Positions 2,732-53,648 of a stretch of 64,000 nucleotides of DNA are shown here, piece after piece. Below the pieces are notes generated by a model, which ran no database searches, was not told where the DNA came from, and was given only the letters and a program-made list of their open reading frames with translations. The first letter of the stretch is position 1, and each line of letters starts with the position of its first letter. Position numbers and translations under genes: made by a program. This stretch comes from Sarea resinae (lineage: Eukaryota), in NCBI GenBank assembly GCA_026026165.1, contig JAPEUD010000025.1, forward strand, positions 62,001-126,000. The letters run 5' to 3'.

Positions 2732-5378
2732 TCTGATTTGGGTGTCATGTTCCTCTTGCTACTCTGAACTCGTTCACATCACATGTAACTGGCACCAGGA
2801 GGGCGTCGTAGGTAGATAGGAAAGGATACCAGCATCCAAATGATGCGTGATGAATGGTTTAGCCAATATTTGACCCTACGAATCTTTCAACGGACAGTAT
2901 ATAGCCCCACGAAACCATCGATTATCATCTCGAACGCCCACCTCTCTTCCGTTCCCCTCTTCACGTTCCCCCTCCCAGAGAAATGAAGTGATTTGTTCGA
3001 CCGGCGATTCCCCCGATCCCCGCCCACCAGAACGTGAATTCCAGAAGGGGGCCAGGAAACCGCTCTCAAAGCCGAGTATGCAATATATTCCTTCTGTGGC
3101 GCGACTGACACTTATAGGTCCCCATTAAGTGCAATGAAGCGGGAAAGACCAAGCAACACGGGAAATGTGAAATGTCGCGCCGCCGCACGAAGAAGAAGAA
3201 AAAAAAGATCAGAAGGCGGTCGGGCTGCGGCCGGTTTTATACGTAAGGTAGGTGGTGGGACTCGCTTGAGTCTTGGCATTTGCTGGTGCAAGCGAGAAAG
3301 TATTTTTACAATGGGATGGAGGCAAGTCCGAATGTCCTTCTCTCCCAACCATGGCTTATGATGAAGGGCATATCCCTTGCGGATGTGCTATTATTATAAT
3401 AGGAAGAGGATGATGCGGCTCCTTGCTGCGCTGATCTCAACTTGACAACTTTCTGAAGCCCGATCTCTTCGATGCTGCGCTTTTGGACGATATGTGCGTT
3501 CTGTGTTTCTCGCATTGCTTTGCTGGGCAGAGGACAGACGCTTTCTGCGAGTTGCGGCCGGTCGGATGACACATGTGGCTTGCGTATCTTCTCCTTCTCT
3601 TCGCCCGATGAGCTGAAATGCTCCTCCGTCTTGTCTGAGAGTTCGAAGACTGGTGTCACATACGACTGTGTCCGATAGAAATGTCCATCGAGAACTTGTT
3701 CGGCCCGGGAGAGCTAGACAGGTCCCAACCTTTCGAGCTTTACGCACCTTTGATCTGCTTGTAGCCTTCTTCTCCGCCTTACGTGCTGGCTTTGTTGTTC
3801 ACGGAGAGACAATGCGGCTGTTGCGACTATTTTGCTGCGTGCGCTGCGCTGTGTGCGGAATGTGGCTGGCTGGCTGGCTGGCCGGCCTCCACGCACTCTG
3901 GCTCAACTACAGTCTGGCTCAACTAGGTTCTCTTACAGGATCATGGAAGAGCGGAGAGCACCATCACATCATCCCAATCTCCCTTTCCCCATTCCTACCT
4001 TATTCACCTAATGGATCATCCATCCATACCCATCTCTGCAGGACACGATAATGACCCTTTGTGCTGTTCGAGTTCTCGGACTTTTATCGTCGAACGTCTC
4101 AGGCTTTGTTGACATCGGGTGGGTCCTTCCCCAAGTACGGTAGGTTGGTACCACTATCCTGTTGGATCGCGGCCAAAATTCATCATGTGCCTACTTGATG
4201 AGGTAGTTTGTCAATACCTGGGGTTGCCTTCGCGAGGCTAGGCGCTCGGCGGTGGAAAATTATAAGGTGAGGTAGGCATGCGGGGATCGAGTCGGGGTCT
4301 AAGGTATCTCATCGGATCCAAGGTATGCTGCCTCAAGTGCTGTTGGGGGGACGTGGTTTGCTGTCAAATGGAATGGATACTCATCGATGTTCCTACTCCG
4401 TCTTGTGCCACCTTATCCTGAGCCATTAACGTTGACCGTCGTTGTCGTCTGTCTCCGTCTCCTCTGGTTCTTTTAACGTACCAATTCACCTTGCTCGTTG
4501 GCTGTAGCTGCTGTGATAGGACTCCCTGGCAATGTAGGCCCGGTGAGGTAAGCAGCGGTGACCCGTCTATCTCATCCGCAGATGTCATCTTCGCCGTGTG
4601 ATTCCCCGCTGGCTTTCAGAGGCGCTGCTCATCCAGGGTGTCGACTGCCCGCACGCGGCGGCCGCTATTCGGGTCCGGTCTCTCGTCACGCGGTGTAGGA
4701 GAGCATAAGGAGAGGTGGAGTAGGGGGTGAAGCTCCAGATCGCTTCGGTCCTACCTACGTAGACGCCTGCCTGGTCTAGAGGTTTGGATGATGTTGTCGC
4801 GAGACGGAGCAGGCGTCTGTGATGTTATCGATACAATAGAGTGCGACATGGATCGGTGATAGATTCTCACTCAGCTTTGCCCATTGTTATATTCATCCTT
4901 CGCTAGTTTACAAGGTAGATGATCATGCCATTAGTTTCACAAGCAAGTTAAACTGGACTGTGGAGAGCAGCTTCTGATTGTTTTATATAGAGCCCAAAAA
5001 GAGGAGGAGTTAGTTCTGCTTTTTTCTGCTAGAGCAGGGGGCTATTCTTTCTTTTCTTTTTTTAATATAGCAAGTTGAGCTGGATTCGTTAGTCGTTGAG
5101 ATTGATAAGGGAAAAGAAGAGAAAGACAGTATGAAAGTGAATATTGAGAAAAGAGAGTGGAAAAGATACCGGAAAGGGTACTCGAAAGGAGGCTAGAAAA
5201 TGAGAGACCAAGGCGAAAGGGAGTAGGAAAAGACGATCCAATAAAAAGATAACCAGAAAAAGAGGGAATCAAAAATGAAAATCAAAAAGCAGGTAGACCC
5301 CAATAGACTAATCCCCAAAGAACAAGCTCAAAAGACGTGGAACCTTGCCAAAAAAAACCGAAAAAAAAACCTTCCTAC

Positions 5379-26593: not shown

Positions 26594-28690
26594 GGTCTAG
26601 CCGCCGGTAAAGTGGTGTTTTGTGAGTTGTGGGATCGTCCCTTGTTCTTTGACGACAGCGGCGTGGAGGTAACCTTCCACGCGAGAGCAGGGAGTCTGGC
26701 AAAATCGGCGACTCAACCCAAGACTGTGACGGGTCTGAAAGCAGTCCAAAGAGGCATGATCGTGGGAGAAGAGCAGAGGGCGATGAGAATCTTCATCATG
26801 ATCGGGTCTGTCGGACTCTGGGGGGCGACAGGCACTACTCGAAGTACTACTGCCACCGTCACCATGCGGTTACCACCAGCACGAGTACTCTAGGTCCGTC
26901 TCGAGGGAGAGGGAAAGGAGAAGATCTCGGCCACATCGGACGGAAGATGAGCAAGCAAGAAGAGCAAGTCGCTGTACTTGGGCGCCCTACGAACACCAGG
27001 CTTACGTGTGGGTAGTGGGTACGTGCTACTCTCTCTGTACTGTACGGACCTCCCTACCCAGTCGGTACCTGAGCTGCCCACGAGAGATCCGATCATTCTC
27101 ATTCTCTGACAGGCCCAACACGTGGAGCCATCCAGCGCTCACCGAGATGAAGATGAAGACGAAGAGACTGCACATCTCTACGAACTATCCGCCTGCTCTG
27201 ATGCATTACCCGGTCACTGATATCGAGATGCTTGGACACGGCCGGTTGCCTGACAATATACGACATACGGAGTACGCGCTGATACCGCGGACACCACGGG
27301 CGCTCCACGGCGAGCCCGAGCTAAGCCCGACTTTCTACTGCGGCAAGGCCCCTACTGCGGTACTGGCTCATCCGCTCTCACCTCATCAACAGACGTCCCA
27401 GTATGTGTGGCACGCAGGTGACGTTCGATGCCATGGAACATGCAATAGATGCTCGGCATGAAAGCCTTAGAGCGCCTCGAAGAAATCGGTCTAGAACGGC
27501 AATATGACCGACCAGCCTATGATCCCGTCCGAAGACGGGACAGAATGGCGGTTGATTATGCGTTCACGGTTATGAAAAGTGTATATGGAGAGAAAAGAAG
27601 AAGAGAAGAAAGAGGAGGGAGGAGAACGAAAGGTCGAAAGAGTCGCTCGTTGGGCGGGATTAGTCAGCGTAATCTCCCACCCGTGGGCCTGCAGGTAGCG
27701 GGACCCGTCTGGTGAAGAAAACTTTTGCGACTCTTGGTTTCCTCCATCCTTCTTCACTTTGTTCACTCACCACTCTACGGTGCAGTATCTTCCACGCCCA
27801 ACATCCAGCAGCAACAAGTGAACTTCTTCATCTTGCACTGGCTGTACATAAATCAAATAGAATGCTCCTTCTCACCGTCCAGCGCTTCCTAGATCTCCTA
27901 TCACGCTTCGACAGTTTTCCTTGCTTTACAGCTTCACAGCTTCTCTACCATCGTCACCACGACTTTGCCTACCTCCTAACCTCTCACATGGTCTCGAGGC
28001 ATACTTTTATTTAGTCAGTGGGAGAGCAAAATAGGTTTCTAGCAGGACCGCGTCTTCTCCACCCTGCTGTTCATTGTCCCCGTGGAACAGCAGGACTATT
28101 TCAACAGACGAACATGTATTTTCTCTTTTTCTTGTGGCTGTCTGCGCTACCTACGGATTGGATGCGATGGCAATACGAAATAGTAGTATCGATGTAGTCG
28201 AGACGAAGATGTAGTGCTCGATTGTATCGACAGACGTTGGATGTGGATGCATCCATATGGATACCTACCACGTATGTGAGGTGGGCTTCCATCCGGATGA
28301 CATTATTGCTCTCCATATTACTGTTGTGTGCGTGGCTCCGACTTGCAGGTTCGGAACCGAACACTTCATCATTTGCCCCTCTCCAGTGCAATTGTACTAC
28401 GTACTATGTACTCCGGAGTATTCGTGGCTGTTGATCGATCCAAGCTACTACTAGAATGGCACTGAGCTGACCGGTTTCGTCGACGCCACGCCTTCGCCTT
28501 GGCCGTATCGGTACTTATACGTTAGTAGTAGAGTACCTCCAGGTTCGTACTTTGCTCCCCACCGTGGACCATCCTGATCCCCGTCTGTCCAGGCACCAAT
28601 GATAACCAGGGCACTGGGCAATGACGGCGGAACAAAGTGACCCGTACCTGCTCCGTAGTTTGACGTCAGAACAGGTTTCCAACTGCCCGC

Positions 28691-28735
28691 GATCGTGATG
28701 ATCGTGATGATCGTGATGATCGTGATGATCGCGAT
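28691..28735. repeat. (GATCGTGAT)x4 plus one variant copy
   Basis: Directly visible 9-mer tandem repeat ~160 nt upstream of the C2-protein ATG. Confidence 0.9.
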
Positions 28736-28891
28736 GTCGTCCTTAAAGCTCTGCTGTTGGATGACACCAGCATCCGCGTCGTTCCAGATACGAGTCATTG
28801 TTGCTCTTCCCATACATTCAATCCAGTACTTCTGACCATGTCCTTCCGCAAACTGTGCTTCTAGAATTATAGGCGCGAAATAGAACCAAAG

Positions 28892-33334: not shown

Positions 33335-34827
33335 TGGAGCGATGGAAGCCAACGGAAGTTGGTGTGATGACTGTTTTCTAAATTGCATTGGGGTGCGATG
33401 TTTCTGAACGATTGAGATGATAGAGAAGCGAGATTTGGATGGCTGGACGGATTATCCGTGTATGATGGCCGTGAGGCGGCTAGGTACAGGTACCTCGGGC
33501 TTTGGTTGTTCCATCGCTGCACAGATGAGACTGTCGAAGGCTCGCAGCTGGATGGGTGATGCCTCTCTCCGACTCAGGTGTTTCCATTGTATCATATTCC
33601 CGCTGGCTGAAGCGTATCTATCTACTCCTATCTTACTTACTACATAGACGTTGGCATGGAGCTGCAACTTTGTACCTGCATCACACATGAGCCTCGACTC
33701 CAAGCCGGTCCCTCCCTCTGCTCATGCATGGTGTGTACTCCGTACGTCAACAAAGTGATTCAGCACTGGCGGCCTTCGCCGTCGTGCTGAGTAAGGTCGT
33801 CGGCAGCCGATGATTCAGCCTCGGCCATCTAGAATCTGGGGTTCGCTGGCAGGTAGCGGTACCCCGTCGCACCGCCTTGATGGTCGTAGGGGCGTGGTAG
33901 CAGGTACATGGGCGATCATGGTCGCGCGGCTTCATTGGACCGAGTCATCCGAGCTATCCGCCCTTTGATTGGCGCAAAGGGGCCCGCTGCGGTGCCGATG
34001 ATGACCCGATTGAGTAAGAGGTTGCGGGTCTCCGGGCAGGGCATTTGGCTGCCGGCCGTGGGACTTCCTCCGCATTGATATTCCCAAAAAGCAAGTGAAT
34101 CCATTGAAACAAGCAGCGGCTGCGTCTTTCTGAGAACGACGAGAGGAAGACGGCCCTGGTGAAGAGACATTCTCTTCAATGCCATGAATGCCTGTCGCAT
34201 CCCCGATATGAGGCTACATAGTAAAAAAAGTACTCCGTATCGGAGACCTCGAGGCAGCAAGACAGCAAGACAGCAAGACAACGGGACTCCGCACTACTAC
34301 ATACCTGACTCTACTTGCGCGACAGGGTCCAATTGTGCCGAGATGCATGTGTCATGGAGGTCACCATCTGTCCGATCGTCGCTCCATCCATAGCCAACCC
34401 TGGATCTCCCCTCTCCCCTCTCATGCCTGGACCCCTCTTGGCCCTTGCCTTTCCGCTCCTCTCCTCTGCTCTCCTCTCCTCTCCTCCACTCCACTCCACG
34501 CTCCACGCCATTCCCTTGCCTTCCCTTCCTCCTCGCCGATCTGCCCGAGTAGACCCGTCCTTAGTAGTACGCGTAAAGAATACATATTGAGAGTAGACCG
34601 GAACACCATTGCCTGTGAGACGAAGCTTATTACACACCGTCTTACACACCTTCCGCTCCCCCTTACCATAGCTGATCCTTCTGGACCCTTCGACGACGAC
34701 CGGTGGACTCTTTTTGCTTTCTGTCATCGAGCTTTTGCCTCTTCATACATACAGACGTACATACATAAAGAAGACCTATCGCGTCCACTGACGCCTCAAT
34801 TGCCGTGAAAACCTGATATCGTTCGTC

Positions 34828-36081
34828 ATGGCTACTGCAGCTCGGACCTTCACCCGCAGCGCTCTGCGCTCAACGCCGGCAACTTCGGGCCTCAAGACCG
34901 CCGCCTGCCGCAATGCCCGTTTCGCCATTCCCCGCCAGGCCTTCCGATCATCTCGACGTGGCTACGCCGACGACGCCTCGCCCAAGTCCAGCAGCAACAC
35001 CGGCCTCTTCGTTGGGGTCGGTCTCGCCGCTGCCGCGGGTGCGGGCTATTACCTCTACACTACACAGGGCGTCAAGTCCTCGAGCGACGGCAAGGACGGT
35101 GGCGTCTTCGTGCCCAAGAAGGAAGACTACCAGGCCGTATACAACGAGGTGGCCAACAGGTTGGAGGAGAAGGACGACTATGACGACGGCAGCTACGGTC
35201 CCGTCCTCTTGAGACTGGCGTGGCATTGCAGCGGCACGTAAGTCATTCGCTCCTTTAACCGTACGTTCGTTGGATTGACAATGCTCTAGCTACGACAAGG
35301 AGACCGGCACTGGAGGCTCCAATGGTGCAACCATGCGCTTCGCCCCTGAAAGTGACCACGGCGCCAACGCTGGCCTCAAAGCCGCCCGGGACTTCCTCGA
35401 GCCTGTCAAAGGTACCGTCCTCATCTTTCTCTCTTGTGAAATCTTTTTCCTTCTGAAAACATCCGATTCTAACTGTACTGTCCTAATCCAGAAAAATTCC
35501 CCTGGATAACTTACTCTGATCTCTGGACGCTGGCGGGCGTCTGTGCGGTGCAAGAAATGCAAGGACCCGAGATCCCCTGGCGCCCAGGCCGCACCGACCG
35601 CGACGTGGCGGCGTGCACGCCCGACGGCCGGCTCCCGGACGGCGACAAGGAGCAGAACCATCTCCGCGCCATCTTCCACCGCATGGGCTTCGACGACCGC
35701 GAGATCGTGGCGCTGTCGGGCGCGCACGCGCTGGGCCGCTGCCACACGACGCGCTCGGGCTTCGACGGGCCGTGGACGTTCTCGCCCACGGTACTGACCA
35801 ACGACTACTACCGGCTGCTGCTGGAGGAGAAGTGGCACTGGCGCAAGTGGAACGGCCCCAAGCAGTACGAGGACAACGGCACCAAGTCGCTGATGATGCT
35901 GCCGACCGACATGGCCCTGGTCAAGGACAAGGAGTTCAAGAAGCACGTCCAGCGCTACGCCAAGGACAACGACGTCTTCTTCAACGAGTTCCGCGATGCC
36001 GTCGTCAAGCTGTTCGAGCTCGGCGTGCCCTTCACCTCGTCCGAGGACAGCCGCTTCACCTTCAAGCCTCTGTCAGAGTAA
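34828..36081 (+). CDS. CCP1: Mitochondrial cytochrome c peroxidase, 3 exons
   Basis: Exons 34828-35237, 35290-35411 and 35492-36081. Arg-rich presequence plus a hydrophobic sorting helix, distal RLAWH, proximal [13 protein letters not shown] and LMMLPTD. Confidence 0.97.
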
Positions 36082-36115
36082 AAAATCTTTTACAAGCGCC
36101 CGTGTCAGAGATTGC

Positions 36116-36121
<6 letters not shown>

Positions 36122-36154
<33 letters not shown>
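36122..36154. repeat. (AG)16 microsatellite in the CCP1 3' region
   Basis: Perfect dinucleotide run. Confidence 0.97.
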
Positions 36155-36158
<4 letters not shown>

Positions 36159-37059
36159 CAAAGAGGGCGGAGAGGAGAGGAGATGACAGGGCAAGGGGCA
36201 CGGCAGTTGCATGATTAGAGTTTTTTTCCCTCCATCCGTTCTGCTCTGGAATCGAGACCACAAGACCACAAGACAAGACCGCAAGACAAAGACCTAGATT
36301 TCCTTCCCTCTGATCCCCATTTCTTTTCTTTTCCTTTTTCTCTTTTTCTCTCCCGGCCATCTATCTTCCGATTATTCCAAAGGCGCGAGCGCGTCTTTTG
36401 CTTTTCGTGCCTCTCTTCTCCCTTTGCCCTCCTCCGCCTTCCCTTCCTCCCCTTTCTTTGCCCTTGGTTTTCCTTTCTCATGTACGTTACCATTTTCCTC
36501 CTGAAGTCTTCCTCTAGATATCTACCTACCTAGTCACTCGGTCTGGGGGTCTTTCCGGCATCCCTTTTCCAATCCAAGTCACGTTTTCTTGTTTCGCACG
36601 AGAGACCTAGACCTAGACATAGACAGTTCAGGTGTGTGGCATAACCAGTGAAGTACCGAGCTACAAAGACAGACAGAACCGACGATGAGAGGACAGATTC
36701 ACCATCTTGGACTCTTTGTTTTTTTTTGGGTGGGGGGGGGGGCGCGGTCAGGTACAGTAAATAGGCCAAGCCGATCCTACGTGCGCCATCCCACAAAGAC
36801 TACTATATTACAACCCGGCTTGTCCGGGTTATGCCTACTTAGTATTTGCCTACTATAATATAGCGTAGCGCTCCTCACATTTGGATGCTGTATACTTCTT
36901 GGAAGCTAGCTAGCTAGCTAGATCATCTCTGCAAGCTCTCGGTCTGATTGAGCGCGTTTTCTTTTTGGGTCGTTCGATTAGGATACAGATGGATATTTGA
37001 AGCAGAAAAGACAACAGACACCCCCATCTCACACCAGAGATTTCTTATGGGCTGTGTGA

Positions 37060-38522: not shown

Positions 38523-41362
38523 CTACGCTTGCTGTGTCGGATCATCATCACCACCACCACCATCTTGGCGACCGGAGTCCAAATGAAGCCAACCGCTGCT
38601 GTCTAGATTGCTTGAGATCGCGCGCGGCTGAGTGATCGGACGATTTTGGCCGGCAGGATGGGTACTGGGGAAGAGCTGATCGAAAGCAGTCAATTGGCCA
38701 TCGTAGCGCTCGAGCCCGGCCGAGACAAGATCGTGATACAAGGCCGTCTCGCTCGGCATGAAGATGAACTTATCAGACCAAAAGAGCCCATCATGCTCAC
38801 GAAGAAAGTGCCGAATCAGATCCCCGAATGAGTGATCACGAATGGCGAATTTGGGTGGACGAACGTGGTCGCTGATCTTACAAATGCCACAGCGGACTTT
38901 GCTGAAAAGCTCGTGGTGTCCCCCGCGGACGAGGGCGACGGCGAGGTCGCTGATTTGGGCATACTGGACATCCGCTTTCTTGGATTCTTTGTATCTCTCG
39001 ACCCCGTATTTGAAGGCGACCTGTGAGATTTGCTCAGAGGACAAGCCGGTCTTTTCGAGAAGATTCGCAGCATAGAGGACGTTCTCAGTGAACTTGCTGC
39101 CCTCGGGCCCATTTTGGGTTGGTGTAGATACCGTTCGCCCCTCGAAAGCCGGTATCACCTGCTGCATTGCGGGGTCTGTGGTTGGAGCGCGAACATACGG
39201 AGTGACGTCGTCAGGGTCCCATCTTCCGTTACGATCGTGATGCTCTGCCAGGACGGGTAGGTGCTTCGGCCACTCGACTATGCACCAAGGCACGCGCTCT
39301 CCCGCACTGACGGTCTTAGTATGGAAAACCCGATAGTCAGTAAGATCCGGGGCATGTCTAGCAGAGATGTGTGCGAAAAGCTGTTCGAAACTGAACCGAA
39401 CGTGGACATCAGTCCTGGTGCAGCCCGGGCATTTGTAGCTTTTTGCGGCCCTCAGTCTGCTGCTGCTCATGAAGCCACTAATATGAGGACAGAGAATCTT
39501 GTCGTAGACCATCCTTGCATCATCGAGCAAGAGGCAATACGGTCCACTGGAGCCCTGTGCCCATGGCTTTTCAACGGCAGACAGGCCATAATACTTAGCC
39601 CGAACAGCCTGTAGGAAAAGAAGGCCATAATCTGCGTCATCTACCGGGTCGAGCAACCTGGCTGCAGCAAATTCGCTCAAAACATCCTTTGCAAGCTTAA
39701 GCACGAACTGTTGTTCAGTTGTCGTGCAGCCCTTTCTGGATTGTAAAATCTTCTGGTACTGTTCACGCTTATCTTGCAATTCTTTGAGTTGCGCGGGAGT
39801 TAAATTCGACCCACTCAACCACTCCGCCTCTGACCGCTTCTCGAGGAGCTTTGGAAGTAGAGCCCTCCAAGATCTATCATTTGGCGTTTTCGCAATTTCA
39901 ATCGCACGTTTGTAGGCCGGAATGAACGCCAGCGTAGCCTCATCCATAGGTGGCACGAGGGTCATTGCCTTTTGCTTGTAAAATTCGATACGCTGGTTTC
40001 TGCGCGCTAAAAGGGCCAATTTCCTCGACTGACTTTCTTCCTCAAGCCAATCTTCGATTTTCTCTGTGTGCTCCATCCGCTTCGTGGTTGCATCGGCTTT
40101 CGCGTCGATCCAGTTGCGCCTTTCCTCTTCGCTGCGGACCTGACCTTCTTCGGCACATTGCAAAAATCCTTCGAATTCTTTTACTATGGCAGTAACATCG
40201 GACTTGAGCCAGGCCTTCGAGCGTCCATGTCCAGGTTTCGATATCACGCGCGAAGTGTATCCAGCACCTTCGTAGTTACCCCAGGAGTCGAGGACTGCGT
40301 GAGGGATACATTCGAGAATCCTGCCGTCGATGCTGTTTTCGATTTCTTGCACAGCAGACTCCTGCAGTATTTTTTTTAGCAAGGGAAAACATTTGAAAAC
40401 ACCATTCTGATACCACATACCCGTATGATGTCCTTGGCGAAGCAGACTTTGCATAATCTCGTCAGAAAAGCCCAATGGCATTTTCTCGTCTTCTTATTCC
40501 CGCAGCCCATGCAACCCATGCCTTCAATCAAGTTCACGTACTCCCACTCCTTCAATCCTGGCAACGGACCTGGCATATCTTCGCCGTAGTTCTGGATTCG
40601 ATTCATCGTCCAGGCGGACTCGTAAGATAAAGCATCTTGAAATGACCGATTGATTCGTTGCGCGCGTCCTAGAAACGTAGGCGGACAGTAGGAGAGGACT
40701 AGCTGCCAGACATCCATAGGCACTGCGGCCACGACTTCGCGGCCCTTGCGAAGCTTAGTAGGCCCTTTCTGCTTCGAGCGTTTAGGAGTTGGATTCCTTG
40801 GGCGCCCGCCGCCCCCCTTCCGCTTCTTGCCGTGCGGTTGTGCGGTTGATCCTTGGTCTTCAGGTGCCTCCATTTTCACAGAGTCGTCTAGGGAGCTATT
40901 AGGACCTTGACTATCATGTGAGCTTAGGGCATGCTCCTCTGCTTCTCGGCCGTTGATAGTTAGCTGTCCGCCGATAGCTTCAGCAGATTCAATTTGGGTT
41001 TGGTCATGCGGACTGGCACAGAGTTCCGACAGAGAGGGCATGCGTGGTGGCAGCCTTTCGGGGACGAGGCCGTCTTTGACTGCTCCACGGGATACTTGAG
41101 ATGTAGAGGTGATCAAGGCGTTGCCTTCGGACTTGATCCCAGTCGGCCAAAGAGGAGCATATCTAATATCGTTGGGTTGAGACATCGTAGCCATGTCTTT
41201 CGGAGTCTCTCGCGATTTGGCCAGGATTAAATCGGAGCTATTCATCGCATCTGACGGGAGGCGAATTGTGCTGGTATGAGGGTTTGAAGTATGAGCCGCA
41301 GTGAATTTGTCGTGTTGCGAGGTCATAGCTGCGCTGGGTGAATCCGCTTGCTCGTCGACCAT
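38523..41362 (-). CDS. F-box protein with Cys/His zinc-binding motifs, 2 coding exons
   Basis: Exons 41362-40421 and 40361-38523, with a GTATGT...GCTAA...CAG intron at 40420-40362 joining IIR|ESAVQ in frame. F-box-like VPMDVWQLVLSYCPP...RINRSF, CMGC/CKVC pairs and two C2H2-like motifs. Confidence 0.82.
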
Positions 41363-41668
41363 GGCTGGTTCGGACTTGCTCGTGGGGCTCGAAAGAGGAT
41401 GAACTTGGACTGAAGATGAGAGACACTGATGACCGGTCAGTATCCGATAAAGCAATGGTGAAGAGAAGAGAGACGTTATCATCTTACCTGGTGGAACAGT
41501 GCCTGTGATGGTAGCACGCCCGAGATTCGGCTTAGTGGCGATCAGCCTGCTCTTTCATCCTGATGTGTGATTGAGGTGTGATTTCTTATTTGAAGGTGTT
41601 AGTCGGTGATGGAAAGGCGTCGGTCCGATCAAACAGAAGGTGTTGGGACGTAGATTGCCGATCAACGG

Positions 41669-41725
41669 GAAGAAGAAGAAGATGATGATGATGATGATGA
41701 AGAAGAAGAAGAAGAAGGAGAAGAA
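41669..41725. repeat. Compound (GAA)n/(GAT)n microsatellite
   Basis: A gaagaagaa-gatgatgat-gaagaagaa run. Confidence 0.85.
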
Positions 41726-42834
41726 GAGGAGAGATACGGTAAGGTGAGGCAGGTAGGTCCAGATGGTTTCCCTTTATGAAAGAGAAGAGAACAAAGTGAA
41801 TTTGGGTTTGGTTGAATATCGAAATGTCAAGGTAGCACTCCGTAGTAGGCAGGTAAGGTAAGGTAAGGTAAGGTACAGACGGTACGAAGTACCCGCAGGC
41901 AAGGTGTCGCACGGTGAGGTACGAACGATAATCGATATCGATAGCAGATTGATCAAGATGCGTCACTTCGCCTCGCTTGATCTCGCTACTGTACCATGTA
42001 CTAAGTAGGTAAGGTAAGGTAGGTACCTTAGGTACTGTAGGTAGTACTGCAGTAGGTCTCGCTAGAGCGGGCGCCACAGGCCGTTTTGGGCTGAGTTTGG
42101 CCGTGGAGGGCGTTGACCCCTCCAGAAGATTGTTCCGTATTCTGCTCGTTCCAGATTGATATTGATGGAGATTCATCCACGTGACTTCCGGTTGCAATGC
42201 TCTTGTCCCAGCGCAAAGCCCAAGACCTCATTGCACTCGGGCTTGATCCGATCCAATCATCATCACATCTCTTCATTACGGTACTGTTCCTTGGGTAAGG
42301 CAGGCTCAGGAACGAGGGACGAGGTATGACAGGGTCGGATTCGCCTAATAGGATCGGCTTGATGCCCTCTAAATCCCCGCCGAACAGGGGCTTTCTGCGT
42401 GTGGGGCGGACCATCTCCCCTCCCCGCTGGTGCTAGAGAAAAAGAAAACCGAAGGGAGAGGAGAGGGACTAGAGTAATCTTCCCCGCGTTCATCTGACAC
42501 CAAAACGTGCTGCCGTCCCACCAGACCCCCGGACCCGACACAGCAGCCAGGGTCCCGCTGTGTTACTTTTCTCCGATGTCGCATCCCGCCCATCCCCCCG
42601 GACCCCAGCCGCATGATGATTACCATCATTGCAATGGCGGAGAATAGAACTTCGGGGTTTCGGCCGCTTACAAAAAGCTGCACAGCGCCCGTGCCGCAGC
42701 TGGCTGTAGCTGGCTGCTTCTTGCAACATCACTGCTGACACCTCCACATCAAGCGTTGGATGTCTTCGAGTGCGGAGCTGTCCTCTAGAGTCTTTTCCTT
42801 CTAGGTGATTGAAGCATCGCGCGGCATCTCCATC

Positions 42835-44610
42835 ATGGCCATGGACGAGAGTATGTGTACTGCTGTACATGTTCTCGAGCACCTTTTGGCTGACGAGAGA
42901 CAGAGCAGATCGACTCGCCAGAGATATTCTTGGAGCAGGGCCAGACTGACTATCGCCAGCCTGGCATCGACCGCTCCGACCGCGAATATGACGACGACCT
43001 GCACGTTCCATGTCCGTCACATACCACGGAGCAGAAGTTGCTCGCTAAGATTGATTTGCGCGTGATGCCTTTCTTGTGTATTCTCTATCTACTTGCTTTC
43101 TTGGACCGGTAATCGTCTTCTTATGTGGAGCCCCTATGAAATGAGTCTAGACTCAAGATTACAGGGTCAACATCTCGAATGCGTCGATTTTCGGACTACA
43201 GAAAGACCTGAAGCTCAACGGAACCAAGTATAACACGGCTCTGACGATCTTTTTCGTACCTTACGTTATCTTTGAGATACCCTCAAACATATTACTCAAA
43301 AAATTAAAACCTCATGTTTGGTGTATGTCAGGATTCTACGTCTCCGGTGGGCACTACTGATGAGCAATAAAGTATCCGGTTGTATGTTCTTCTTTGGCCT
43401 GGTCTCCATTTGTCAAGGTCTAGTACACAATTATAGCGGGTTGCTCGCAACTCGATTCTTCTTAGGCCTCTGCGAGACAGGAATGTTTCCTGGATGTAGG
43501 TTGAACGGCCCTCAGCTTTCTGCCAATATACTGACAACTTTGTAGGCTTCTACCTCATTGGCATGTGGTACAAACGATCAGAAGCTCAACGACGATATTC
43601 ATTTTTCTTCAGCTCGACGACTCTAGCCGGCGCCTTTGGTGGGCTACTCGCTAGCGCTATAGGGAAGATGAACGGCAAACGCGGATACTTGGGATGGCGA
43701 TGGATATTTATTCTCGAAGGCTGCCTGACGTGTGTAGTCGCCATAGTCTTTTTCTTCTTCCTCCCCAGTTTTCCCGAGGAAGCCACTTGGTTAGCAGAAG
43801 ACGAGCGCGCCTATGTCAAAGCCCGACTCGAAAAGGATCAAGGCAAATCAGCGGCAGAGAGGCAGATTGGCGTCAAAGATGTGCTCAACGTCTTCAAGGA
43901 CTTCAAGGTCTTTGTAGGCGGATTCATGTACATGGGACTAATCGTGCCGGCTTATGGTGAGCCGTCTTTCATTGAAGCCTTGCTCATCCTACAGGCTAAC
44001 GTCGTGTAACGCAGGCTACGCGTTCTTCTCCCCCGGTATCATCAGATCCTACGGCTATTCGCAGATCCAAACCCAATTGCACTCCGTGCCTCCCTGGGCT
44101 GCCGCTTTTGGCTTTGCAATGCTCATCGCCTACCTTTCCGACAAATTCAAGCATCGGTTCATCTTCGCCCTGATCCCCATATGTGTCGCCATTGCCGGCT
44201 TCGCCATTCTCCTGACTGTCCACGACAACAAGCATCTCCAATATGGCGCTTGTTTCCTCGTGGCCATGGGCTCTTATGCCGCTATGCCCGTCATTGTATG
44301 CTGGTTCAACATGAACCTTGGCGGCCATCACCGTCGCAGCATTGGGTCTGCTTGGCAGGTTGGGTTTGGGAATATTGGGGGGATCATCGCTACGTATGCG
44401 TTTCTTGCCAAGGATGCTCCGAAGTACAAACCGGGTTATAGTATATGTATTTCATTCATTTGTTTGAGCGCGGTCAGTTGTCTCATTTACCTCATTTCTG
44501 TCTGGATGCAGAACAGGCGCCGAGAGAAGGCGGGTACGGATCTAAGTCTGACGGAATTCGAAAAGGCGGAGCTGGGCGATTTAAGCCCGGATTATCGGTA
44601 TTTACTTTGA
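42835..44610 (+). CDS. MFS transporter, DAL5/anion:cation symporter (allantoate/nicotinate permease-like) family, 6 exons
   Basis: Exons 42835-42850, 42904-43108, 43165-43322, 43373-43495, 43546-43956 and 44015-44610. Motifs KIDLRVMP, LAFLDRVNISNA, FEIPSN, RFFLGLCETG.FPG, WYKRSE, GWRWIFILEG and GNIGG. Confidence 0.94.
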
Positions 44611-45492
44611 CGATCCACTGTCAAAATCAAAGGAACCTTCATCTATTTCTCTGATGAGTGATGCCCAAATCACCTCGCTTGACCTAAATGGTGATATCAT
44701 AACATCTGTGACCCCAACCACAGGGGAAATCTCGCCGCATATTGAATTCTCTAAGACGTCGAGGAAGCCACATGTTTGTATTGGTCAGTATCAGAGTAGA
44801 ACGTCGCTCCTTCTCAACACGTAAATTTCTTGTAGTCTTCCAATTAACACGCGGATTGACACAAGCTCATTGATGGCACACTCACCATACCAAGGACAAT
44901 AAGGGTGCTGGCCTGTCTGTATGAAGCTGGAAAGTGGTTAATCTAGCAGACCTTCCTTTCTATTCTTTTCGTCTCAGTTGTAGTTTCTTGGTGATGGTTT
45001 GCGGAGTGCGTGTTATGACTTCTACCACATCGGGATATCCCATTTAAAGGAGGCACCTGCCAACACTTGCATCTGTCAACACTTGGAGACAGTTGTGTTA
45101 GGAGCATTGATAGACTGCTCCTACCACTTCAATGCCGTGGCTACGAGTGGTGCAAGCAAGTAATATTACTCCGCTTGCTTCACCATACATTCACTCCCAG
45201 CTCTCGCCTCCCAGGCGCCCATTGACTCATCCATTCGACCCGATTGGGAAGCAACGATGGATGAGGCAGATTTGAGTGAATGCAGTAGTCGCGTTTTTTC
45301 GCGTGGACTCGAGGATGAAGCATAAATATCCGTCGGGGAACGCGTCTCTTCGCCTTTTCACCTCCCATTCTCATCCTTCTCGTCAACAACTTCCTCTTCA
45401 CCGTCAACTTCACGACCACATCATTAACACTTTCATACTTCATCAAACGCCTTAACACTTTCATTGCCTACCCCACCTTCTATTCTCTCGTC

Positions 45493-45500
45493 TATATAAA
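45493..45500 (+). promoter_or_regulatory. TATA-like box (TATATAAA) followed by a pyrimidine-rich tract
   Basis: TATATAAA followed by ~160 nt of CT-rich sequence, the usual layout of a fungal Pol II core promoter, but with no downstream ORF. Confidence 0.35.
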
Positions 45501-45535
45501 GGCCTTCCTCCCCCCTCGTCCTCTTCTTCTTTTTT

Positions 45536-45606
45536 AACTTCTTCAACCTCTTCAACTTCTTCAACCTCTTCAACTTCTTCAACCTCTTCAACTTCTTCAA
45601 CCTCTT
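45536..45606. repeat. (AACTTCTTCAACCTCTTC)x~4 tandem repeat
   Basis: 18-mer (two related 9-mers) repeated about four times. Confidence 0.92.
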
Positions 45607-47200
45607 TCTTCTTACTCATCTTCTTTATCTTCTTCCCTTATCTTCTTCATCTTCCGCCACCTCGTTATCCCCCCCCCCGAAAGATTGAGTGTGAGGACTG
45701 CTTTTGCAGCTTCTCTTATTCCTTCTTTCGTCACTATATCCTTCCTGACTCGGTCTGCAGCAATGTGGACTTGAGAAAGAGTGATCTCGCAGCAGTGTGA
45801 GACACCAGCAAAGAGGGGCAGGGAACAGTGGGGTCGGGTTCCCTGCCATAGACCACCGTGAGCATATGCTCACTCAGCGCTTCAGCATCCCTTTGGATGC
45901 TCATTCCAGCGGTCTATACTCTTTCGCTGAGGCGAGTGACCAGCATTTATGCTAGACCCAGTGATTGCGACTGCTGCACAATGCCGGGATTACCGTGTTT
46001 CGGCGCCGTTCCCGGGTTGTGTCAGGAAAGGAGGGGCACGGGTGATTTCCCTGCTCGAGGCCACAGTGCGCACTATGCCTTTTCAGGCGCGTACTGAGTG
46101 ATCGTGCATCCAATGATGCACTTTCCATCGGTTCTGTCTTCTTCCCTTTTCCTCCTGGTTCTGTCGCACGCGTCTCGGCCATTGCAGTGTCTCCGTCTAG
46201 GCAGTGCCGAAACACTGTTCTTGGGGGCACTGTGCTGGGGAGCACGACTTTGCCGCTCAAGGAGTGATCAGTATGTTCCTTCAACTGATGGCACAATTTT
46301 CCTATGTCACTGCACAGAGAAAGTCAATAGCTTCGGTGCCTTCTTACGATAGGCACTAGCACAGACAAACTCAGAGTCAGCCGAATCGCGCTTGGTCTCC
46401 CAACATGGTGTCCTGCCGCAAGGCAGACATCTCAAGAGCCTTGCAAATGCCAATTTCCATAGATTTCTCTTTTTCTTGTGCATTTATATCATCCAGCTAG
46501 GAACGAAGTGTCCTGCAGTGCATACCTTCCAATTCCTCCGATGAATATGTGCTCAATGTGACAAAGATCGATGTCTAGGATGACCGTACAATCGTCGCTT
46601 GGGACTGATATCGTTGCCACACTACACCGAAAAGTTCATGAGTGCTGACACGCCGACCAAAGGCCAGGCTTTGCAAATCATTGAGAAACAGTAGGCTAGA
46701 AGCAATGAATATTTGTGATATCATATGAATCCTGTAGGAATGACACCTTTTCCATAGGTATCTCGGGGACCCTGGACGGACGAACTCGCGAAACCGTCTA
46801 TTCGGAGTAGGAATCGATGCTCAGGGTCAATCAGCAATTGAGAAAGGGCCGAATCCAGGACACCGTTAGCATTCGACTATTTGGAATATCTAGGATTGAA
46901 AACAACAACGGCTTGTTGGGACGAGGGGTCAGGTATGCTCGAACCGTGTTCATACTTTTTGTGAACTATTTCCTAGCTAGGGCTACCAGGGTAGAGAGAG
47001 GTGTGTGTTAACACCCAAGAATGTACATACGCACGTGGACCAACTTCCTCCGTCTCCGTAGTGAAATGGAATGAACTGGAATTTTGATCCCTCTCACCTA
47101 CCCTCTTCCTATATGTCTGCGCAAACCAAATGTTGGTCGAAGTGATACATTATAATCAGACAGGAGGAGGCCCTCCAATACGGGTTTTTTCAAAACTTGC

Positions 47201-50180
47201 TCATAGCTTCCCTTCGCCCTTGGCCAGATAGCCCTTCTCCTTCAACCAGGAAGCGACATCGTCCCGATCCTTCCTCAGCCAATTATCCTTGGCCTGGATA
47301 GCATCCAAGCTCTGCGCCAATCCTTGATTGAAGCCCTTGGTGCTTCTCTTGCTGAAGAAGTCCTCGATGTCCTTCTTGTGCTCTTCCTTAGTGAAGCTAG
47401 ACGTGCAGAGCTGGACTACAGTTCCGAGCATTGATAGACCCGGGGGGAGTTTCTTCTCAAGGGTGGCCCAGTTGTCCTTGGCCCATGCCCAGAGGGCCTC
47501 GATGCCCTCCTTGTGTGTTCGGAGACCACCGAGCGGTAGATAGATGTCTTGTTCCTTGACCTCCTTGCTGAGGGGAAGAGCGAGAGTTTGCTTGATAAGA
47601 TCAGGGTCACGGGCGCGGCCGATAGAGCGGAGGGCCGTGTTGCGCTCGTCGCTGTTCTTGGCCGTGCGATATTCGTTGAGGATGATATCGTACTAGGAGA
47701 GTTAGCAGAATGCTCAGTAAAGATTACCCAATTGTGCGTACTTCTTTCTTCCCGCCGTTTTGAAGCACGATACCATAGACGCTGCCGCGGATATTTGGAT
47801 GGAGTGCTTCGCGATCACCAGACGCAAACTTGTTGAATATGTCAAACGCAGCAGCAATGACTTTGGCGTCGCCAGAAAAGCCGGCACTGCCAAAGAGCAG
47901 GGCTTTGAATTGCTGTTGAATGTGGTCTTCGCCTTCATTGAACGCCCATCCAAGCTGGTGCGCCTTCTCGCTGACGATGGACCTTTGGAAGGCCTTAAGG
48001 CCGTTCTTTACCTGATCATCTTCAAAAATCCAGGCGTTCCGGATTGAAGCGATACGAGCTGTCATTTCATCCCACACGACAAACTCGGTTTCATCACTGA
48101 AGCCTTGCAGTAATGCTAGAATCCCTGATGTAGCTTGATACCCTGAAGCAGCCAACGCTCCGGCATCAGCAATCATGCCGGCACGATCCTCTATACTCAG
48201 CAGACCTTCCTTAGCAGCTTTCCCGAGCTTCTCGAGTCGTGCAGGAGAGTAAGAAGTCCTGTAGATACCAGAATGGTCGGCGTTGAGCTTGTAAAAGTCC
48301 AAGTCTTTCACCTTGAAGTCCAGGTCCCGACCGGAAAGAGTGAGCTCCTCGTTGACTCCATCCTTAGTCCGGAGGCCTAAGAAGACGGGGAACAGCGTCT
48401 TATCTTCTTCAGGCTTAACATCTGCCGTACGTAAGAAGCGGTTCTGCTTGACGTGGATTGAATTCGACTTTTCATCTTCTTCAACAGTAATAACTGGATA
48501 TCCAACGTTCTTGGTCCAGATATCCATCACTCTTTTGACATCCTTACCGCTGGCATCGCTCAACGCAGCCCAGAGATCACCAGTTTGAGTATTGCCGTAT
48601 GCGTGTTTCTTCAGGTATCTTCGGATGCCTTCTATGAAAGTCTTTTCTCCCAGATACTTAGAAATCATCCTGAGGACGCAGGACCCTTTAGAGTAGGAAA
48701 TTGCATCAAAAATTTGATTAATCTCATCAGCACGCTTGACGGGAACTTCAATAGGGTGACTGCTTCGCAAAGAGTCCAAGGCCAGAGCACCTTGTAGAGT
48801 GTCTGCGACGTAGCTCTGCCACACCTTCCACTCCGGGTAGAAAGCATTGCATGAGTACCAGGACATCCAGGTAGCGAATCCCTCGTTCAACCACAATCCA
48901 TCCCAGAAGTCCATGGTTACAAGGTTTCCAAACCACTGATGTGCTAATTCGTGCTGGACAACCTCGGCCACTCTCTGCTTGGTCGAGGCGCCACTTGTCT
49001 TCTCGTCGAAGAGCAGGTCCACAACTCGATACGTGACGAGACCCCAATTCTCCATAGCTCCAGCACTGAAATCAGGTATGGCAACCATATCCATCTTCGG
49101 CAGAGGAAACTTGCTGTCGAAGGTCTTCTCATAGAAGGCAAGAGTCCTAGCAGCCAGTTCTACAGAAAATTTGCCTTGAGAGATATCCTTGTCGGGGGTG
49201 GCAAAGACCCTGACTGGTACTCGAAAGTTGCTGGTCTCGATGCATTTCAACTCCCCAACAATGAAAGCAAGCAGGTACGTCGACATCAAGGGAGTCTTGT
49301 TGAATGTGACCGCCTTCTTCTTGGTCCCGCTTATTGCCGAGTCGACCTCCTTTTCACTGGCGACGTCCATATTGCTAAGGCATGTCAGGTGCTTATCTGC
49401 AATCAGAGTAATGGTAAAGGTCGCCTTAAGCGCCGGTTCGTCGAAGCTTGGGAATGCTCTTCGAGCATCAGTGGGCTCCATCTGCGTCGTTGCCATGTAC
49501 TTTGTGTTTCCTTCTTCATCTTTGTAAGACGATCTATAGAAGCCCGACATCTTGTCGTTGAGTTGGCCGGTAAAAGTATGCGTCAGCTTTGCTTTGGTGC
49601 CAGCTGGTATGGTCTTATCGAATGACACCGTCGTCGTCTGCGAATCTTCATTGTAGGCCAATTTTGGAGAGGAAGTGATCACGTCGGAGCCGGAGGAGAC
49701 CGTCGTCGAGTGGATATCAATCTCCAGTGTGTTCAAGGAAATCGAGTGCGTATCTTCAGCAACATCAAGGCTGGGGAGATGCAAATCAGCTGCGTTCAAA
49801 GAGCCTCTGAGAATTGACAGCACGCAAGAGGTGGCTTACTCGATGACGACGGTACCACTGTAAGTAAATTTTTCGAAGTCGGGCTCCAGGGTCAGATCGT
49901 AGTGCAATGGCTTCACATTAGCTGGCAGGACTTGTCGTCCCTTGGAGACGTCGACGCCGCCGCCGACGACATCAGCCATAGAGTGCGAATGACACATGGT
50001 CCGTTGATATGAGCAGTATCTCACGAGAGAAGGTCGATTCTGCTTCCGGGAGATCTGGAATGGACTTGGCTGATGGTGGAAGTTTCTTGACGAGAGTACT
50101 GCGGTCGATGCGGTCAGGAGAGGTCGCCTGCTTCCCGATGCGAAGGTGCGTTGTATGAACTTGGAACGAAGGCACTGCAT
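47201..50180 (-). CDS. APE2: M1-family zinc aminopeptidase (aminopeptidase 2), 3 exons, N-terminal presequence
   Basis: Exons 50180-49840, 49770-47742 and 47692-47201. Motifs [49 protein letters not shown] and YSKG. Confidence 0.96.

Positions 50181-51445: not shown

Positions 51446-53648
<2,203 letters not shown>

Follow-up and report, generated by a model that had tools for sequence, protein, structure and literature searches.

The locus is a spacer between two convergent fungal genes, an MFS transporter gene on its left and an M1 aminopeptidase gene on its right (Table 1). This spacer is single-copy, non-coding, and the most self-folding part of the window, by which we mean the whole 64-kb stretch of DNA that was analyzed. 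The identity of the flanks as the 3' ends of these genes, already recognized in the first-pass annotation, is supported by the agreement of ORF ends and Pfam scores. A related-strain RNA contig covers the MFS 3' end at 44359-44641 (metatranscriptome cover is 44090-44641 overall), and a 505-nt related-strain RNA contig covers the aminopeptidase 3' end at 46935-47442, with metatranscriptome cover also at 47602-47694. The metatranscriptome contigs, from one low-depth RNA run that is unable to show absence, placed 13 records over 44000-47700, with depth in 13 of 30 bins and none on 44744-45487 or 45612-46851. RNA-run matches on the microsatellite within the spacer were low-complexity only, mostly less than 90% alike. 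A metagenome scan with the aminopeptidase C terminus yielded one locus at 28% identity, and two DNA runs from other organisms in the same study matched only the microsatellite and aminopeptidase gene fragments.

Table 1. Features of the spacer and its flanks, in window coordinates (p, pairing probability; z, folding score against dinucleotide shuffles)
Feature	Position	Strand	Details
MFS transporter gene, last exon and stop codon	43942..44610	+	Left flank; ORF ends at 44610; Pfam MFS_1 35.9 bits (cut-off 33.4)
Block A, structure-rich, upstream of TATA/CT tract	45000..45330	+	z -4.30 (+), -3.01 (-), 150 shuffles
Domain A1, multibranch, closed by GCGGAGT/ACTCCGC	45001..45174	+	Closing helix p 0.61; inner 8-bp hairpin 45099-45123 p 0.97
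Domain A2, Y-shaped	45188..45282	+	9-bp closing helix p 0.99; nested 9-bp helix 45226-34/45257-65 p 0.98
Pyrimidine-rich unstructured tract, promoter-like on +	45340..45690	+	GC skew -0.6 to -0.7; MFE only -2 to -25 kcal per 200 nt
TATA box TATATAAA	45493..45500	+	About 70 nt upstream of densest CT tract; TATAWAW occurs 6 times on + in the 64 kb
Perfect 18-nt microsatellite, 3.9 copies	45536..45606	.	TRF 100% matches; repeat family D1
Block B, structure-rich body of candidate RNA	45690..46485	+ (weakly resolved)	z -5.15 (+), -3.74 (-), 45 shuffles, scored over 45690-46500
Domain B2, five-helix junction	45806..45929	.	10-bp closer with one bulge; holds perfect 10-bp hairpin and 7-bp helix around two hairpins
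Three hairpins	45974..46121	+	45977-46021 p 0.85-0.98; 46064-46096 p 0.90; 46104-46121 p 1.00
Domain B4, 98-nt irregular hairpin	46157..46254	+	Three main stems p 0.92-0.99; 9 G.U in 26 bp
Domain B5	46311..46482	+	13-bp closer 46311-23/46469-82 p 0.75-0.85; hairpins 46335-57 p 0.97, 46407-31 p 0.89-0.99
T-rich run and TTTATAT	46460..46495	.	Possible 3'-end element if read on +; read on -, a TATA box (TATAAAT) directed into block B; role putative
M1 aminopeptidase gene, last exon 47201-47692 and ~266 nt of 3' UTR	46935..47692	-	Right flank; stop at 47201; ERAP1_C 127.8 bits

The first-pass annotation had read the interval as one RNA of about 1.6 kb, tiled by helices. Our folding data divide it into three parts instead: block A, a promoter-like tract, and block B. 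The significance of folding was expressed as a z-score against dinucleotide shuffles on both strands, with 150 shuffles for block A, 45 for block B, and 200 for single domains. Both blocks fell below the shuffled controls on both strands; by this measure the excess of self-complementarity noticed earlier is real, but it is patchy rather than tiled, being confined to two blocks with an unstructured tract between them (Table 1). Windows over 44700-45099 had z-scores of +0.1 to +1.8, and no excess structure was found at 44860-45000 (z above 0 for 200-nt windows against shuffles). The folding of 200-nt windows places the onset of structure at ~45000 and its end at ~46500.

As a background, we used 638 contiguous 200-nt windows of the same 64 kb, in which the mean z was -0.04 (sd 1.16), with 12 windows at or below -3 and 4 at or below -4. 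When 800-nt running means were taken, the five most negative on the plus strand all lay within 45001-46600, as did the top two on the minus strand; the 800-nt means in the other window register were -2.06 (plus) and -1.87 (minus). The most negative 200-nt window of all is located in the aminopeptidase exon, and since coding sequence also contains isolated windows with z at or below -4, an RNA gene is not established by a low z on its own. Inverted 7-mer pairs number 18 in block A versus 5.1 expected and 48 in block B versus 27.5, counts that none of 300 shuffles reached for either block, while direct repeats in the blocks, by the same k-mer counting, are at chance level. Eight of the 60 perfect hairpins in the 64 kb (stem of at least 7 bp, loop of 3-20) fall in 45099-46444.

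Two short motifs of the region may be recorded here. CAGTG/CACTG is enriched (9 occurrences where 1.24 would be expected; p 6e-6, uncorrected for 364 tests), partly from the helices themselves. GAGTGAYC, considered as a signal, occurs in four copies on the plus strand at 155-166-nt spacing, in units that are unalignable beyond the motif; it was rejected because 95 of 2000 shuffles and 27 of 78 real tiles contain a triple 8-mer.

All 13 complementary segment pairs that we checked lie where the first-pass annotation had placed them, 10 as perfect complements; 44884-96/44985-98 is present with a bulge needed for pairing, 46064-71/46089-96 is present with one G.U, and the supposed closing pair 44862-73/46432-43 has poor complementarity. 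We folded the plus strand of 44860-46500 and of 45690-46500 and scored 16 helices. Eleven had a mean pair probability of at least 0.6: 45001/45168, 45099/45116, 45188/45274, and 45226/45257 in block A, and 45806-15/45919-29, 45817/45838, 45848/45911, 45858/45868, 45884/45895, 46064/46089, and 46104/46115 in block B. One more, 46414/46422, depended on the fold (0.05 in one, 0.99 in the other). The remaining four, all long-range closers (44884/44985, 45176/45316, 45742/46021, and 44862/46432), stood at 0.01 or less.

In block A, confident pairs (p at least 0.8) number 83 on the plus strand versus 49 on the minus strand, and the region of domain A2 (45185-45285) has a z of -3.56 on plus, with 0 of 200 shuffles as good, and of -2.20 on minus (6 of 200). 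A small CT-rich stretch at 44953-44977 lies just upstream of this block, and a 16-nt tandem duplication, imperfect (88%) and not G-rich, is found at 45053-45085. In block B, all 16 overlapping 200-nt plus-strand windows starting at 45550-46300 have z-scores between -1.4 and -4.3, with a mean of about -2.6 versus about -1.1 on the minus strand. The helices of domain B2 all have p 0.90-1.00 and contain no G.U; its region (45803-45932) has a z of -4.89 on plus (0 of 200 shuffles as good) and of -6.20 on minus and is strand-symmetric, as the z is strong on both strands. The only clearly plus-specific element is domain B4, whose region (46150-46262) has a z of -3.06 on plus (0 of 200 shuffles as good) and of +0.10 on minus (106 of 200).

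Taken over the whole locus, the strand is weakly resolved. The mean z of the block B windows, the folding of the B4 hairpin on plus alone, and the confident pairs of block A speak for the plus strand; the minus-strand z of block B (Table 1), its confident pairs (158 on minus, 151 on plus), the better folding of B2 on minus, and an inward-facing minus-strand TATA match at 46482 speak against this assignment. The two arguments for the plus strand in the first-pass annotation did not hold up. Mismatches said to be repeatedly G.U on plus show no such bias in a strand-neutral count, with G.T:A.C ratios of 5:6 in block A and 11:14 in block B, and the argument from a GNRA loop rests on one loop among five tetraloop hairpins (special tetraloops 1 versus 0 of 5, with no plus bias).

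Between the blocks, C+T reaches at least 85% over 45565-45681, one of only three such plus-strand tracts in the 64 kb. Of the four other CT tracts that the window contains, two lie just upstream of ORF starts, in matching orientation. A TATA box with a CT box is a fungal core-promoter layout, according to the accessible text of PMC4624585 and PMC6591348. Judged by its sequence, TATATAAA at 45493, followed by the CT tract up to 45681, looks like a correctly oriented fungal core promoter. The inward-facing TATAWAW match at 46482 is one of 8 on the minus strand in the 64 kb.

The absence of a credible ORF from the region, asserted in the first-pass annotation, is confirmed by concordant ORF, Pfam, homology, splicing, and codon tests. 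The longest ATG ORF is 94 aa, and no ORF was lengthened by up to three canonical introns in any combination, none of the spliced ORFs exceeding 94 aa. Pfam returned none of 41 ORFs (at least 45 aa) at cut-off and 6 of 41 weakly at E 0.03-0.2, and in no frame did it detect a transposase or viral domain. Against 5.8 billion proteins, three ORF searches gave no match, phmmer gave only repeat-protein noise, and the codon scores of the region's ORFs are unremarkable and not coding-like. We also considered and rejected a mitovirus-type reading with TGA as Trp, under which the longest frame is 247 aa (270 aa including the MFS exon frame from the left) and carries no RdRp domain, and a pheromone precursor, for which only two tiny CaaX ORFs were found, at 47071-47150, outside both blocks.

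The region likewise matches no catalogued RNA family, whether RNase P/MRP, SRP, snRNA, snoRNA, ribozyme, intron, or riboswitch, in line with the first-pass annotation, which had seen no clear RNase P/MRP, SRP, snRNA, or hammerhead core: nothing in the window reached a gathering score of Rfam 15, and at E up to 10 over 43500-48000 there were only three matches, of 13.9-15.9 bits versus thresholds of 40-50. No tRNA or tmRNA was found. A snoRNA cluster was rejected: Rfam gave no snoRNA match, and inspection by eye revealed no convincing arrangement of C/D or H/ACA boxes.

In a DNA run that may be the source sample, k-mer depth stays level at 320-355 over the region and both flanks (354.7, 319.5, and 349.5), and DNA contigs cross the region without branching, except at the microsatellite and one adapter chimera. 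No copies exist elsewhere in the 64-kb window, and the region is single-copy. Inverted pairs of 14 nt or more number just two in 44600-47200 (one of 24 nt at 71%, the other of 20 nt at 80%), and neither bounds the blocks.

We tentatively favor, as the best reading of these data, an unannotated plus-strand non-coding transcript covering block B. It has to be weighed against the possibility, somewhat doubtful in our view, that there is no functional RNA here and that the short inverted repeats are a DNA-level by-product, left in a long neutral convergent-gene spacer by template switching or by a decayed palindromic insertion. Template-switch mutation creates perfect hairpins. The excess is largely strand-symmetric, with z at or below -3 on both strands, and visible in a purely sequence-based inverted k-mer count; the best domain is purely Watson-Crick and better on the minus strand, G.T has no bias over A.C, and other windows at or below -4 lie in coding DNA, all of which would suit such an origin. 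What it explains poorly is that the helices are nested in compact multibranch domains with 4-11-nt loops and not in simple long palindromes, that a 98-nt hairpin with nine G.U pairs folds on one strand only, that the blocks adjoin a TATA/CT-box tract, and that nowhere else in the window does an 800-nt stretch approach these values. Nesting in multibranch form, with short loops, is the appearance expected of RNA domains and not of long terminal inverted repeats. A single continuous plus-strand RNA of ~1.5-1.6 kb (~44860/45000 to 46450/46500), with the blocks as its 5' and 3' domains and the CU-rich tract as a linker, would agree with the better folding of both blocks on plus, the CT-rich stretch just upstream of block A, and the span of structure from ~45000 to ~46500. 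We consider it improbable, given that the four long-range helices that should tie it together have p of at most 0.01, that 44860-45000 has z above 0, and that its middle contains a TATA box matching the consensus as well as a perfect microsatellite; the single closed molecule drawn in the first-pass annotation resolves into two blocks split by the unstructured TATA/CT tract, its closers having p near 0. Translation of a small protein, from a plus-strand ORF of 66 aa (45897-46097) or 79 aa (46113-46352) with the structure in leader or trailer, is a little less probable again. Both ORFs lie downstream of the TATA/CT tract, and the 79-aa ORF has a hydrophobic N terminus and five Cys, resembling a signal peptide with a Cys-containing tail. 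Neither ORF has a credible homolog or Pfam family (the hits of the 66-aa ORF are summed repeat matches to long repetitive proteins), upstream AUGs at 45764 and 45865 precede the first ORF and more precede the second, the leader would exceed 200-400 nt, and the codon scores are not coding-like.

Slightly below this in our estimation, and so very unlikely, is convergent transcription, in which the inward TATA boxes at 45493 (plus) and 46482 (minus) drive overlapping RNAs over block B that act via double-stranded or small RNAs. Neurospora has loci with convergent transcription, by analogy; two TATAWAW matches, scarce in the 64 kb (6 on plus, 8 on minus), bracket block B, and both of its strands fold well, but this is a post-hoc reading of two short motifs, and no CT box follows the minus-strand TATA. 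Inverted-repeat richness is what a MITE-like, other non-autonomous mobile, or endogenised element would share with the locus. The flat k-mer depth and the lack of copies in the window refute a multicopy MITE-like element, one of the options left in the first-pass annotation, and largely refute a recent one; with terminal inverted repeats lacking, transposase and viral domains absent from every frame, and the mitochondrial code opening no long ORF, we regard this entire class as highly improbable. Least credible of all, to the point of being nearly negligible, is a telomerase RNA with a canonical or non-canonical template, for which only the length and the branched layout speak. In N. crassa the telomerase RNA measures 2049 nt, with the template 3'-AAUCCCAAU-5', and the telomerase core comprises a template-pseudoknot and a three-way junction with a 4-bp P6.1 stem and a 5-nt NUNGN loop, according to the accessible part of PMC3592445. 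At our locus, 0 of the 6 cyclic permutations of CCCTAA and no TTAGGG or GGGTTA occur in 44600-46700; the permutations account for both strands, so that this repeat is missing from either one, which confirms the earlier statement that a TAACCC/CCCTAA template is missing. The 16-nt duplication at 45053-45085 might conceivably pass for a terminally redundant template, but it is imperfect and not G-rich. No Sm-like A-U(4-6)-G run was seen on reading the sequence, Rfam 15, which may lack a Pezizomycotina model, gave no telomerase match at E up to 10 over 43500-48000, and the candidate RNA would be interrupted by the TATA box and the microsatellite. The missing template hexamer and Sm-like run leave the assignment to telomerase RNA unsupported and nearly refuted.

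Returning to a plus-strand transcript of block B, we infer its transcription, strand, and ends, and any function it may have, in the following model. RNA polymerase II would start in or just after the CT box and would yield an unannotated non-coding plus-strand transcript of roughly 0.8-0.95 kb with about five independent domains. This transcript would end near the T-rich/UAUAU element at ~46460-46500, leaving ~450 nt to the point where the converging aminopeptidase mRNA ends (~46935). It might function as a folded scaffold or regulatory RNA, or as a buffer or antisense partner between the convergent genes. Block A, upstream of the proposed promoter, is left unexplained by this model; it may be an element of its own, such as a divergent transcript, or else a piece of long MFS read-through. 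The hypothesis of an unclassified large ncRNA, raised in the first-pass annotation, would survive as a hypothesis on thermodynamic grounds, while the telomerase-RNA and single-1.6-kb-RNA readings are corrected.

A bolder form of this proposal is that block B, perhaps together with block A, is the gene for an undescribed multi-domain structured ncRNA of a wood-associated ascomycete-like fungus, with its own TATA/CT promoter and outside the catalogued families; we consider this rather unlikely. If true, it would add a new large fungal structured RNA to a size class otherwise made up of telomerase RNA and a few others. Large multi-domain structured RNAs are rare, and almost all known ones serve core cellular jobs. 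A new filamentous-fungal one with its own promoter and no Rfam relative would merit characterising. At present, the locus is an anomaly of folding, statistically robust but seen in a single genome, and its value is mainly that of a precise and cheap target for RNA and comparative work.

Among known systems, hairpins left by template switching or decayed palindromes share with this non-coding spacer a strand-symmetric surplus of inverted repeats, which are short and often perfect, although a template-switch origin predicts neither nested multibranch domains, nor a one-strand G.U hairpin, nor an adjoining promoter-like tract. Pezizomycotina telomerase RNA resembles our candidate in being long, non-coding, and branched, without an ORF, in a filamentous-fungus-like genome; it differs in that the locus here has no template, Rfam match, or Sm-like site and is split by a TATA box and a microsatellite. 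To our knowledge, a folding z-score near -5 over 0.8 kb is not a known trait of typical lncRNAs. A likeness is also offered by the Pezizomycotina intergenic structural ncRNAs of Gao, Jones and Rivas 2021 (PMC8216456), which are stand-alone structured candidates with no known function. In the accessible text of that study, three of the four are single hairpins with H-box features and all four are defined by covariation across genomes, whereas our locus spans 0.3 + 0.8 kb, has several domains, and is supported by thermodynamics only, in one genome. Fungal pol II lncRNA genes differ from our locus in that block B has a folding z near -5 over 0.8 kb and its transcript is a candidate, but they share with it the lack of an ORF, the location between genes for proteins, and a CT-rich tract after a TATA box, the promoter layout described in the accessible text of PMC4624585 and PMC6591348.

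Our analysis partly confirmed the observation made in the first-pass annotation: the spacer between the convergent genes for an MFS transporter and an M1-family aminopeptidase (2.59 kb from stop to stop, in a filamentous-fungus-like genome with few introns) contains a genuine folding anomaly, the strongest of the window, in non-coding, single-copy DNA. Structure had been described throughout 44860-46450; above-chance self-folding is confined to two blocks, A (45000-45330) and B (45690-46485, folded as 45690-46500). Against dinucleotide-preserving shuffles, z, the folding score, was below the controls on both strands in block A (-4.30 on +, -3.01 on -; 150 shuffles) and block B (-5.15 and -3.74; 45 shuffles), whereas 44700-45099 has no excess structure, z being positive on both strands, and the folding energy of 45340-45690 is close to nil. 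A second set of folds agreed, with z values of -4.10 and -4.62 for 45700-46450 (20 shuffles) and just -1.86 and -1.52 for 44860-45330.

For a genomic background we divided the same 64 kb into 638 contiguous windows of 200 nt and scored each (mean z, -0.04; SD, 1.16); 12 lie at or below -3 and 4 at or below -4. The stretch 45001-46600 contains the five lowest 800-nt running means of the + strand and the lowest two of the - strand. A count that needs no energy model agrees: inverted 7-mer pairs number 48 in block B (27.5 expected) and 18 in block A (5.1 expected), a level reached by 0 of 300 shuffles in either case, and direct repeats stay at chance level. Perfect hairpins (stem of at least 7 bp, loop of 3 to 20) occur 60 times in 64 kb, 8 of them within 45099-46444.

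With respect to the flanking genes, a related-strain RNA contig spans 46935-47442, and the aminopeptidase 3' UTR therefore extends to about 46935. Contigs from a low-depth wood-decay metatranscriptome match both 3' ends (44090-44641 and 46935-47694) at 96-99% identity; in the 3' UTR of the aminopeptidase gene they differ by a 3-nt deletion at 47162. The Sarea resinae fungus thus had a close relative active in that sample. A single metagenome scan yielded no usable match. The lowest of the 638 background windows is 47201-47400 on the - strand (z, -5.17), the sense strand of the final ~200 coding bases of the aminopeptidase gene, and further isolated strong windows lie at 52601-52800 (+, -4.82), 3201-3400 (+, -4.06), and 28601-28800 (-, -3.93).

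The interpretation of the region as an unclassified structured RNA was partly supported. All 13 complementary segment pairs listed with coordinates are present in the sequence. When 44860-46500 was folded on the + strand with pair probabilities, and 45690-46500 again with a span limit of 200 nt, 11 of the 16 helices tested were well supported (p at least 0.6, mostly above 0.9) and one was ambiguous (p of 0.05 in one fold versus 0.99 in the other). The remaining four, the long-range helices proposed to close the 5', second, and 3' domains and the entire molecule, were unsupported (p of 0.01 or less). In the 45690-46500 fold, helices 45806-15/45919-29 and 45848-54/45911-17 reached p values of 0.90-0.96.

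Features of the spacer, its flanking genes, and CT tracts of the window
Feature	Position	Strand	Remarks
MFS transporter gene, last exon	stop at 44610	+	Pfam MFS_1
Block A multibranch, 174 nt	45001-45174	+	predicted fold
Block A Y-shaped domain, 95 nt	45188-45282	+	perfect 9-bp closing helix, perfect 9-bp helix nested inside; z -3.56 (+), -2.20 (-)
TATA box TATATAAA	45493	+	middle tract sequence
Perfect 18-nt microsatellite	45536-45606		middle tract
Block B small hairpins	45693-45805	+	predicted fold
Block B five-helix junction	45806-45929		all Watson-Crick; z -4.9 (+), -6.2 (-)
Block B hairpins	45977-46021, 46064-46096, 46104-46121	+	predicted fold
Block B irregular hairpin, 98 nt	46157-46254		9 G.U pairs; z -3.06 (+), +0.10 (-)
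Block B domain closed by 13-bp helix	46311-23/46469-82	+	predicted fold
M1-family aminopeptidase gene, last exon	47201-47692	-	Peptidase_M1 293.6 bits, ERAP1_C
CT tract	34403-34542		ORF start 34828 downstream
CT tract	41657-41757		precedes ORF 40379-41554 (-)

Several short motifs recur within the blocks. The + strand carries four copies of GAGTGAYC (45779, 45934, 46096, and 46262; spacing, 155-166 nt), each directly 3' of a closed domain and with a small hairpin after it. We rejected it as a signal, a triple 8-mer being at chance level (95 of 2,000 shuffles; 27 of 78 real tiles); the units do not align past the motif. CAGTG/CACTG occurs 9 times in 45790-46310 (1.24 expected; p 6e-6, uncorrected for 364 tests), including one CACAGTG (46062) and one CACTGTG (46228); helices account for part of this excess. 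Block A also contains an imperfect 16-nt tandem duplication at 45053-45085 (2.1 copies, 88%).

The absence of a credible coding ORF held up. The longest ATG ORF in 44600-47200 has 94 aa, none of 41 stop-to-stop ORFs (45 aa or longer) reached the Pfam cut-off (six weak matches, E 0.03-0.2), and searches of 5.8 billion proteins with three ORFs returned no match. For a 66-aa ORF, a full phmmer search returned just five long repetitive proteins, whose scores sum weak repeat matches. Reading TGA as Trp opened no long frame, up to three canonical introns combined in any way lengthened no ORF, and codon scores were unremarkable.

Searches for known RNAs were negative: no Rfam family reached threshold anywhere in the window, only three junk matches appeared near the region at E of 10 or less, and no tRNA or tmRNA was found. 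Telomerase RNA, one of the suggested identities, is very unlikely. In PMC3592445, the Neurospora crassa template is 3'-AAUCCCAAU-5' and the conserved core comprises the template-pseudoknot and the P6/P6.1 junction. The region is not classed as telomerase RNA because 44600-46700 contains no telomeric-hexamer permutation on either strand, in agreement with the reported lack of TAACCC/CCCTAA; the 45053-45085 duplication is too imperfect and insufficiently G-rich to resemble a telomerase template. A MITE-like element is effectively excluded. In a DNA run that may be the source of this sequence, contigs 44000-45172, 45143-45565, and 45577-47700, covering region and flanks, have k-mer depths of 354.7, 319.5, and 349.5 and break just at an adapter chimera and the microsatellite, and BLASTN against the rest of the window found only 15-17-nt chance matches. 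A recent multicopy element was rejected on these even depths and the lack of copies elsewhere in the window.

The assignment to the + strand is real but weak. It is favored by mean z over 16 overlapping windows starting at 45550-46300 (about -2.6 on + versus -1.1 on -), the one-strand hairpin at 46157-46254, the + z-scores of both blocks, confident pairs in block A (83 versus 49), and TATA/CT tract orientation. Against it stand the 800-nt means in another window register (-2.06 and -1.87), confident pairs in block B (151 on + versus 158 on -), and, at 46482 on the - strand, a TATA-like box that likewise faces into block B. Two signs originally adduced for + also count against it: a strand-neutral count of wobble-type positions shows no G.U bias (G.T:A.C, 5:6 for block A and 11:14 for block B), and GNRA/UNCG tetraloops number 1 versus 0 among 5. 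The best single reading, held tentatively, is an unclassified structured RNA, a candidate + strand transcript of ~0.8-0.95 kb over block B. Nearly as likely, though itself rather improbable, is that the folding anomaly originated at the DNA level, with no RNA function.

For the candidate transcript over block B, the tract between the blocks, at least 85% pyrimidine on the + strand, may provide a promoter. Long CT tracts are scarce in the window (3 on +, 2 on -), and two of the other four are closely followed by the start of an ORF in matching orientation; no obvious ORF accompanies the pair at 36.1-36.5 kb. There, at 36107-36503, microsatellite tracts of GA and CT adjoin the downstream side of a gene resembling that for cytochrome c peroxidase (ORFs 34828-35241 and 35557-36081). 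A + strand transcription start predicted in or after 45500-45690 is backed, albeit unproven, by the TATA/CT layout, which corresponds to the core promoter of fungal genes as outlined in PMC4624585 and PMC6591348, wherein a TATA box is combined with a CT-rich motif directly upstream of the transcription start.
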